Source: a virus (lineage: Duplodnaviria; Heunggongvirae; Uroviricota; Caudoviricetes). Taken from it: a stretch of DNA of 13,234 nucleotides. Where the stretch lies: the IMG/VR virus record IMGVR_UViG_2850778813_000008, one strand, 5' to 3'. The notes under the pieces were generated by a model, which had not been told where the DNA came from, made no database searches, and worked only from the letters and a program-made list of their open reading frames with translations. Every line of letters begins with the position of its first letter. Position 1 is the stretch's first letter. Shown piece by piece: positions 7,866-8,351 of the stretch. Position numbers and translations under genes: made by a program.

Positions 7866-7942
7866 CGTAAAAACTGCTTCAATTCTTGTACGCTTCGCAA
7901 AGCTGTACCGCGAGGCGAATAGCAGACATGGACATTTGAAAG

Positions 7943-7966
7943 AGCCCGCTTTATGCGGGTTTTTTT
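7943..7966 (+). terminator. Rho-independent terminator (tR'-like) downstream of Q-like gene
   Basis: AGCCCGC-TTTAT-GCGGGT hairpin followed by T7 run (7960-7966). Confidence 0.6.
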
Positions 7967-8054
7967 ATACCTGAAAAACGGCACAGGACGTTAAACGTGC
8001 TGGTGGTCAGATGAGTTTGCAGATGTGATGACATATGGTTATTATTCTGCCTCC

Positions 8055-8131
8055 GGCCCTTTAGCTCAGTTGGTCAGAGCGAGCGACTCATAATCGCCAG
8101 GTCGCTGGTTCAAGTCCAGCAAGGGCCACCA
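8055..8131 (+). tRNA. tRNA with CAU anticodon, Ile2 (ileX/ileZ-like) by similarity; Met not excluded
   Basis: Hand-folded cloverleaf: acceptor GGCCCTT/AAGGGCC, anticodon loop CTCATAA (CAT at 8089-8091), T-loop TTCAAGT, 3' CCA encoded; resembles recalled E. coli ileX. Confidence 0.75.
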
Positions 8132-8132
8132 A

Positions 8133-8209
8133 CCACCACTAGCTCATCCGGATAGAGCATCAACCTTCTAAGTTGACGGTGCGAGGTTCGAGTCCTCGGT
8201 GGTGGGCCA
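8133..8209 (+). tRNA. tRNA-Arg (UCU)
   Basis: Acceptor CCACCAC/GTGGTGG, anticodon loop CTTCTAA (TCT at 8167-8169), T-loop TTCGAGT, CCA encoded; unusual C1-G72. Confidence 0.7.
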
Positions 8210-8211
8210 GC

Positions 8212-8287
8212 GCCGACTTAGCTCAGCAGGCAGAGCAACTGACTTGTAATCAGTAGGTCACCAGTTCGATTCCGGTAGTCGGCACCA
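8212..8287 (+). tRNA. tRNA-Thr (UGU), thrU-like
   Basis: Acceptor GCCGACT/AGTCGGC, anticodon loop CTTGTAA (TGT at 8245-8247), T-loop TTCGATT, CCA encoded; near-identical to recalled host thrU apart from D-loop changes. Confidence 0.75.
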
Positions 8288-8290
8288 TAT

Positions 8291-8351
8291 GCGGGCATCG
8301 TATAATGGTTATTACCTCAGCCTTCCAAGCTGATGATGCGGGTTCGATTCC
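8291..8351 (+). pseudogene. tRNA-Gly (UCC, glyT-like) truncated after nt 61 by IS911
   Basis: First 61 nt match recalled glyT through the T-loop (GCGGGTTCGATTCC), anticodon TCC at 8324-8326; 3' T-stem and acceptor strand replaced by IS911 left IR at 8352. Confidence 0.7.

Follow-up and report, generated by a model that had tools for sequence, protein, structure and literature searches.

The DNA at positions 7299-8351 of the window (i.e., the whole 13,234-nucleotide stretch analysed here) very probably represents the late-region tRNA module of a lambdoid prophage, which has survived as a 1-kb island within a decayed Rac-site prophage of a Shigella-type chromosome and supplies tRNAs for rare codons. 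As we read it, the module would be composed, in this order, of a Q-like gene, an intrinsic terminator, a dedicated sigma-70 promoter, and Ile2, Arg, Thr, and Gly tRNA genes arranged head-to-tail. Three of the four tRNA genes are intact and one is dead; the appropriate annotation is thus three functional-looking prophage tRNA genes (Ile2, Arg-UCU, and Thr-UGU) followed by a tRNA-Gly pseudogene truncated by IS911. The four-tRNA array itself is real, ordinary, and already known; hundreds of public genomes and several phage records contain annotations of it. The window corresponds, with no mismatch, to positions 3,866,600-3,879,833 of CP026814.1 (assembly GCA_002949535.1), and all features located below lie on its plus strand.

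An initial annotation, made from the letters alone, had described four tightly packed tRNA genes with anticodons CAU, UCU, UGU, and UCC, spaced 1 to 3 nt apart; this description is supported by three ARAGORN calls, four matches to the Rfam tRNA model, and intergenic spacers of 1, 2, and 3 nt as counted from the letters. The tRNA sequences thus fold, and the failure of predictors that the initial annotation had named as a refutation did not occur. tRNA1 (8055-8131; anticodon CAU) is of the tRNA-Ile2 (ileX/ileZ) type, encodes its own CCA, and was called by ARAGORN and by Rfam (70.5 bits, E-value 4.7e-14). tRNA2 (8133-8209) is a tRNA-Arg(UCU) with an argN-type body that reads codon AGA (ARAGORN; Rfam, 56.4 bits, E-value 3.7e-10), and tRNA3 (8212-8287) is a tRNA-Thr(UGU), a near-copy of thrU that reads codon ACA (ARAGORN; Rfam, 69.8 bits, E-value 7.5e-14). 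According to ARAGORN and Rfam, the cloverleafs of these three tRNAs are canonical and intact. The fourth gene is represented by the 5' 61 nt (8291-8351) of a tRNA-Gly(UCC) gene copied from glyT; Rfam reports a partial match at 8300-8354 that covers model positions 10-63 of 71 (31.5 bits, E-value 0.0025), and ARAGORN made no call because the gene is truncated.

The truncation is caused by a complete IS911 element of the IS3 family (8352-9600; 1249 bp, 99.9% identical to annotated IS911 copies, and near the expected size of about 1250 bp). The element begins at 8352 with TGAAGTGG... and ends at 9600 with ...CCACTTCA, and the terminal inverted repeats TGAAGTGG are present. From 8291 the letters read GCGGGCATCGTATAATGGTTATTACCTCAGCCTTCCAAGCTGATGATGCGGGTTCGATTCC and continue straight into IS911 (TGAAGTGGCACAC...), so that, as the initial annotation had proposed, the Gly gene is cut after nucleotide 61 by the left inverted repeat, with 8291-8351 running directly into 8352. 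Alignment with intact orthologues shows that their sequence goes on with CGCTGCCCGCTCCA at the point at which IS911 begins in the window, and the Gly gene is a dead fragment because the 3' strands of its T stem and acceptor stem have been lost. No target-site duplication flanks IS911 (TCC to its left, GGG to its right), and the target DNA is not contiguous across the element. In this lineage, the T arm of the Gly gene would have been the landing site of IS911, with all DNA to the right subsequently lost or rearranged. The window has a truncated IS66-family transposase gene on the right flank of the element, whereas six related chromosomes have an IS110-family fragment there; the lineage of the window has therefore undergone further rearrangement beside IS911.

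The missing 3' end of the Gly gene, searched for as the 14-mer CGCTGCCCGCTCCA, was absent from all seven 20-kb Shigella loci, and an IS911 right inverted repeat followed, after 0-6 nt, by CGCTGCCCGCTCCA was not found in a species-representative genome collection, which probably holds no Shigella. The left junction between the Gly fragment and IS911 likewise had no match in this collection, a weak result given its probable lack of Shigella, and was present in 0 of 5426 complete E. coli genomes. The single full-coverage match to the junction, in strain VL7S7, was rejected; the Gly gene of this strain is intact and its IS911 is located about 580 bp further on.

On its left, the island is bounded by IS600 (6035-7298; annotated IS600 copies are 99% identical), which shows the inverted repeats TGAGGTAGCC... 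and ...ACACCTCA and carries open reading frames at 6099-6401 and 6437-7255 with matches to Pfam HTH_Tnp_1 and rve (positions 8789-9945 of locus L012). Homology to intact prophages starts at 7298, and the surviving phage DNA with the tRNA genes, from IS600 to IS911, amounts to 1053 bp. Further to the left lie dbpA, ttcA, and a truncated phage integrase gene, an arrangement that we take to mark the Rac prophage site as in E. coli K-12; to the right lie sitABCD-like ABC transporter, Usp, and porin genes. What remains of the prophage comprises the truncated int, queH, hok/sok (Rfam, 116 bits), rem, a DUF1367 gene, a truncated ybcO, the Q-like gene, and the tRNA genes, interrupted by two copies of IS600, IS3-family copies with ALIL frameshift sites, IS911, and IS66-family DNA. 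The tRNA genes of the window are followed by IS911 and IS66-family DNA, with no late cargo or lysis cassette; the lysis cassette that adjoins the array in intact relatives was lost secondarily.

Seven Shigella-type chromosomes, including CP000036.1, which we take to be S. boydii Sb227, are identical at both the Gly fragment/IS911 junction and the IS600/Q junction; because the junctions are common to all seven chromosomes, the IS600 and IS911 insertions must both be old. These chromosomes have lost different parts of the prophage on the left, and the Q-tRNA island was kept in 7 of 7. At one locus (L008), for example, an integrase gene is followed by IS600 and then by the Q-like gene and the tRNA genes, with no prophage left between the integrase gene and IS600. 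Retention of the island in seven chromosomes is compatible with selection, though no proof of it.

The gene upstream of the tRNA array (7311-7865) encodes an intact 184-amino acid protein of the DUF1133 family, which we assign to the Q-like late antiterminators on the basis of Pfam and PHROG. The protein matches DUF1133 (4e-109) and PHROG 753, "anti-termination protein Q-like" (3e-81), and its score against Phage_antitermQ exceeds the cut-off (29.3 bits vs. 26); the placement of a Q-like gene upstream of the tRNA genes in the initial annotation is thus well founded. Its sequence is identical in many assemblies, its location is that of Q in intact relatives, and 189 nt separate its end from tRNA1.

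Between the Q-like gene and tRNA1 lies a terminator-like hairpin (7943-7966) with the core GCCCGC/GCGGGU, a UUUAU loop, and a run of seven U. The predicted fold has an energy of -18.7 kcal/mol (z = -5.4), and 0 of 200 shuffled sequences folded as well. A terminator scan gave no entry for this hairpin, probably because the stem extends into the U-run by A-U pairing and leaves too few free T. Based on these sequence features, the hairpin resembles an intrinsic terminator and is predicted to terminate transcription. The initial annotation had equated it with tR'; while a strong hairpin with a U-run does follow the Q-like gene, the label tR' applies by position only, as no PR' was located. Specifically, neither a promoter scan nor manual reading recognised a PR'-type or sigma-70 promoter in the interval 7866-7943 or within the 3' end of the Q-like gene, and TTGACG at 7861-7866 was considered as the -35 element of PR' and rejected for want of an acceptable -10 partner. 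Relatives with other Q types carry a different hairpin and U-run at the equivalent place, and the sequence is common to all from the U-run onward; this pattern indicates that the terminator travels with the Q module and that the promoter and the tRNA genes form a separate module.

The promoter in question is a sigma-70-type candidate at 8017-8045 (TTGCAG, 17 nt, TATTAT) that ends 9 nt before tRNA1; the promoter scan itself reads the site as TTTGCA-18-TATTAT. Conservation across 38 distinct upstream sequences is highest in the columns of TTGCA and TTATTAT, whose distance from the first nucleotide of the tRNA is fixed, and drops to 40-60% upstream of the promoter hexamers. In one upstream variant, the U-run of the terminator abuts the -35 element. 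We make no claim that this promoter was captured together with ileX; the -10 and discriminator regions are alike, and the -35 spacing does not fit. The conserved hexamers suggest that the candidate promoter drives the tRNA array and may allow for its expression in lysogens, and Q-dependent read-through might add to expression during lytic growth of intact phages. Transcription of the array would presumably yield one polycistronic precursor, from which RNase P and 3' nucleases would release the tRNAs. In the window, read-through is unlikely to matter because the prophage is dead and the operon upstream of the Q-like gene was lost to IS600.

The presence of tRNA genes after Q is a textbook feature of Stx and other lambdoid phages, and the initial annotation had interpreted the first two genes as the rare-codon pair carried by such phages downstream of Q. 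This interpretation agrees with the identities of the two genes. tRNA1 is 96% identical to ileZ of an Stx2a phage and 90% identical to ileX of K-12, and its acceptor stem (GGCCCTT/AAGGGCC) retains C4-G69 and C5-G68, two pairs that are features used by TilS. ARAGORN labels this gene "Met" because its label reflects the anticodon only; RefSeq names identical CAU copies in intact relatives tRNA-Ile. We thus classify tRNA1 as tRNA-Ile2 type, which predicts a lysidine modification at C34. tRNA2 is 83% identical to argN, 73% to argU, and 60% to argO. While the body of this gene is of the argN type and hence fits the classic Stx phage gene that had been proposed, its anticodon is UCU, vs. UCG in argN, and UCU is the anticodon of argO in Stx phages; the proposed assignment therefore needs this qualification. 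We would accordingly place the Ile-Arg pair in the lineage of ileZ/argN that Stx phages share with other lambdoid phages.

Stx phages with the array ileZ-argN-argO (e.g., Stx2a_F349, 2851, and Nil2) carry it at the same site, i.e., after the late antiterminator gene and a hairpin and before the late cargo, and share the TTGCA...TTATTAT promoter with the window; BLAST found 88-90% identity over tRNA1 and tRNA2 to many Stx phages. The two systems differ in the anticodon of the second gene (UCG in the argN of Stx phages, UCU in slot 2 of the window) and in what follows it, as Stx phages carry argO, whereas the window has no argO-type gene and has Thr(UGU) and Gly(UCC) instead. The window also differs from Stx phages in that it has no stx genes and encodes a Q-like protein of the DUF1133 type.

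The Thr and Gly genes have a different source. tRNA3 is identical to K-12 thrU at 74 of 76 positions (97%), with both changes in the D loop, and the tRNA4 fragment matches K-12 glyT at 60 of 61 positions (98%); the intact copy in EIEC prophages is identical to glyT. As the initial annotation had noted, the two genes are near-copies of thrU and glyT without tyrU between them. Alignment to the K-12 operon thrU-tyrU-glyT-thrT-tufB matched thrU and glyT and revealed a clean gap of 206 nt that corresponds to positions 666-871 of the K-12 operon locus (L015) and hence to tyrU and its spacer; the phage segment can be written as thrU + T ... AT + glyT. The single T after thrU and the AT before glyT (i.e., 1 nt after thrU and 2 nt before glyT shared by operon and window) are retained in the phage copy, and the clean gap with both flanks kept is evidence that the pair was captured from a host-type operon and then underwent a clean deletion. 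Capture of the pair from an operon of the thrU-tyrU-glyT type, with loss of tyrU, would have occurred long ago. A captured or rearranged cluster had been suggested previously, and the former part of this suggestion holds; the event was not local, since the Thr-Gly fusion is inherited with, and ancestral to, a widespread phage module, and no rearrangement of it took place in the window.

The near-identity of the Thr and Gly genes to thrU and glyT could also be taken to indicate that, rather than phage cargo, the array represents part of the host thrU-tyrU-glyT-thrT-tufB operon or an attachment-site tRNA gene. We consider this refuted, with hardly any probability left to it. The window lacks tyrU, the 116-nt spacer, thrT, tufB, and the upstream region of the operon, and a phage Arg tRNA gene precedes the Thr gene; the flanks consist of prophage and IS DNA, with neither coaA nor tufB nearby, and not of the tufB-operon genes whose presence the initial annotation had named as evidence against a phage cluster. 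The true operon is a separate locus in every genome. With regard to an attachment site, the array of intact relatives lies deep within the prophage, with a Q-type gene on one side and a holin gene on the other, and the integrase end lies beside ttcA, about 7 kb from the array.

Intact four-tRNA arrays, extending from a Q-type gene to class II holin, lysozyme, and Rz genes, were found in E. coli VL7S7, CFSAN029787, and FDAARGOS_944; the prophage of the latter is nearly complete and carries ipaH as cargo. The array is also present, at 93% identity, in the temperate phages vB_EcoS-689R5, vB_EcoM-606R7, and PhiR47_1. The EIEC and other E. coli prophages and these three phages share gene order and 1-3 nt spacing with the window, which differs from them in that its Gly gene is truncated by IS911 and its lysis genes are gone. 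The tRNA genes of the window are 99.5-100% identical to the EIEC prophage copies, with the three intact genes identical. With a 311-nt intact-array query and a coverage of at least 80%, the four-tRNA array was recovered from 603 of the 5426 complete E. coli genomes. Slot 2 of most E. coli copies (about 590 genomes) contains UUU with C33 instead of UCU, and the Arg(UCU) version of the window is nearly identical in about 10 records only.

A survey of 120 IMG/VR viral contigs with an ileZ-type gene, annotated with ARAGORN (in which Ile2-type genes are labelled Met), identified Ile2-Arg(UCG)-Arg(UCU) in 54 contigs, Ile2-Arg(UCU) in 26, Ile2-Lys(UUU)-Thr-Gly in 13, and the anticodon set of the window, Ile2-Arg(UCU)-Thr-Gly, in 6; four-tRNA arrays overall were present in about 22 of the 120, and the exact slot-2 sequence of the window in 6 viral contigs. 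The slot-2 anticodon thus varies among relatives (UCG, UCU, or UUU with C33). Separately, many related phages have a visibly decayed slot-2 gene, and the fourth gene is decayed in some EIEC prophages.

The proposed role of the module is codon supply; the array would provide decoders for AUA, AGA, ACA, and GGA, all of them codons ending in A that are rare in E. coli and Shigella core genes and several-fold more common in phage and IS transposase genes. We compared codon usage between the intact FDAARGOS_944 prophage (50 genes, 10,470 codons) and 48 K-12 genes (14,426 codons). In this comparison, which draws on one relative and one 50-kb host sample and addresses correlation, not benefit, a ranking of the 61 sense codons by their excess per 1000 places ACA, ATA, GGA, and AGA at 1, 3, 5, and 8, with prophage/K-12 ratios of 2.8, 4.1, 2.1, and 5.8, respectively; the chance that four random codons all fall into the top eight is about 1.3e-4 (70/521,855). 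The IS open reading frames of the window contain 8.9 ATA, 12.6 AGA, 13.3 ACA, and 12.6 GGA per 1000 codons, vs. 2.7, 1.2, 4.9, and 6.7, respectively, in K-12. These data fit the standard rare-codon-supplement model as well as a proposal, put forward in passages of McDonald et al. (2015; PMC4539685), that the codon demand of IS genes is the reason why Shigella retains such tRNAs.

According to these passages, glyT, argO, and thrU are multi-copy and phage-flanked in Shigella and occur together in S. flexneri, S. boydii Sb227, and others, and the phage-borne copies are tied to enrichment of AGA, ACA, and GGA in IS genes (PMC4539685). The locus in the window is one such Shigella copy, and its junctions recur in CP000036.1. 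The paper refers to the Arg gene as argO in these passages, whereas the Arg gene of the window has an argN-type body; the same passages make no mention of an IS911 truncation at this copy, of the promoter, or of the terminator (PMC4539685). Phages SfI, Sf6, ST64T, PS3, and 21 also have tRNA genes located after Q, with an over-representation of ACA in phage relative to Shigella that is described for SfI and its relatives (PMC3636060). These phages resemble the window in having Thr(UGU) downstream of Q and differ from it in carrying Asn(GUU) and/or Thr only, with no Ile2, Arg, or Gly gene (PMC3636060). A literature search on ileZ/argN/argO, or on Thr, Gly, and Ile tRNAs combined with "lambdoid", yielded nothing useful.

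Other readings concern the function of the array. The three tRNA genes might be inert leftovers between two IS elements that are poorly or not expressed and are useless to the cell; we regard this as unlikely, yet as a reading that deserves some weight. The prophage is indeed in fragments (truncated integrase, IS600, IS911, IS66, and IS3-family copies), the Gly gene has already been destroyed, and decay of slot 2 in many related phages and of the fourth gene in some EIEC prophages is what such a reading would lead one to expect. Substitutions are also too few to show selection; the intact genes are identical to the EIEC copies, and so small a divergence does not allow purifying selection in Shigella to be demonstrated. 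Against this reading, neither the promoter hexamers nor any of the three cloverleafs is damaged, and all are identical to their counterparts in intact prophages; the island was kept in seven chromosomes despite different losses of the surrounding prophage, and the passages of McDonald et al. argue for selective retention in Shigella (PMC4539685). The tRNA genes may benefit the present host, which would be in line with the rare-codon supply that we favor.

Countering anticodon nucleases is a known role for other phage tRNAs. Phage tRNAs of this array could similarly serve mainly to replace host tRNAs that are cut by anticodon nucleases in abortive infection, rather than to balance codon usage, and the unusual variation of the slot-2 anticodon loop among relatives, including UUU with C33, as well as the existence of such roles elsewhere, would be consistent with this. 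We nonetheless judge it highly improbable. The four anticodons closely match the most phage-enriched rare codons, as predicted by the codon model and not by rescue; the Thr and Gly tRNAs, near-identical to those of the host, would be cleaved like the host tRNAs; and no nuclease partner was identified.

Rare-codon supply could be extended to a more speculative proposal, to which we give only a low probability, that the Q-tRNA island has become a domesticated, IS-bounded rare-codon cassette, kept by Shigella as the remaining prophage erodes and used for translating several hundred IS transposase genes as well as other imported genes. Slot 2 may have been retuned from UCG to UCU in the course of repeated anticodon switching, with sisters that have UUU with C33 in the same body, and the tRNA promoter would read directly into IS911.

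The locus thus adds one more case to the published idea that phage-borne rare-codon tRNA genes persist in Shigella and pathogenic E. coli that are full of foreign and IS genes. The IS600 and IS911 junctions, common to seven Shigella-type chromosomes and, for the Gly fragment/IS911 junction, found in none of the complete E. coli genomes, provide a usable lineage marker. Only three points are new, and these only mildly so: the clean junction at which thrU and glyT are fused, the conservation of the promoter, and the slot-2 anticodon variation. Outside the window, a glyT-bodied gene with the anticodon UAC was also observed in some EIEC prophages.

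The second tRNA gene of the array has a single argN-type body, with an anticodon loop that differs between phages, as seen when the copy in the window (8133-8209) was compared with those of the extracted loci L018 (2595-2671), L021 (1578-1654) and L001 (4095-4171) and of the IMG/VR loci L023-L142. In Stx phages the loop reads CUUCGAA (Arg UCG); the window has CUUCUAA (Arg UCU), and the majority of E. coli carriers have C/U-C-UUU-AA, which is called as Lys UUU and has C33 instead of U33; U33 is near-universal in tRNAs. Decay of this gene is plain in many copies. With regard to the fourth tRNA, the copy in the EIEC prophage of E. 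coli CFSAN029787 (L003, 6994-7065) combines a glyT body with anticodon UAC and G37, as do those of loci L006, L009 and L013. Both RefSeq and ARAGORN label the CFSAN029787 gene tRNA-Val; it has a 1-nt deletion in the 3' strand of the acceptor and CAA in place of CCA, and is probably a gene in decay rather than a functional Val tRNA.

In the EIEC prophage of E. coli VL7S7 (L002, 5336-7220) the same Gly gene is intact, and an IS911 copy lies approximately 580 bp downstream of it, directly past the holin gene; beyond this IS911, unrelated prophage sequence follows. This insertion is an event independent of that in the window, in the same neighbourhood. On the right side of the window IS911, the adjoining DNA (9601-12091) is of the IS66 family: a minus-strand transposase gene, truncated at 438 aa, abuts the IS911 right end and is followed by its TnpB and orfA and, past these, by a separate plus-strand fragment, the C-terminal part of an IS66 transposase. 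By contrast, the IS911 neighbour in the six related chromosomes that share the left junction is an IS110-family fragment. The arrangement indicates nested IS66 copies together with a lineage-specific deletion or inversion beside IS911.

IS600 (6035-7298) adjoins a remnant of ybcO (DUF1364; 5840-6037) and is flanked on both sides by GGA, as if 3 bp of target had been duplicated. Yet the ybcO remnant lacks approximately 80 bp of the 3' end present in intact relatives, and there is no continuity of reading frame; either the window carries a different ybcO allele or a small deletion accompanied the IS600 insertion. The programmed-frameshift sites of IS3-family copies are marked by two matches to the ALIL pseudoknot, at 1577-1693 (109.5 bits) and 13163-13234 (58.6 bits). 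Of these copies, the first (1296-2509) appears to have inserted into another IS, the orfA of which survives at 911-1213, and the second is cut off by the window end.

The early-right region encodes QueH (3597-4283), an epoxyqueuosine reductase, which is a tRNA-modification enzyme; queH and the tRNA array are found in one prophage remnant, and queH is also present in the intact relative in E. coli FDAARGOS_944. A hok/sok type I toxin-antitoxin locus is located at 4341-4666, comprising a sok RNA (4341-4516; Rfam RF01794, 116 bits) and a Hok/Gef ORF (4454-4666).
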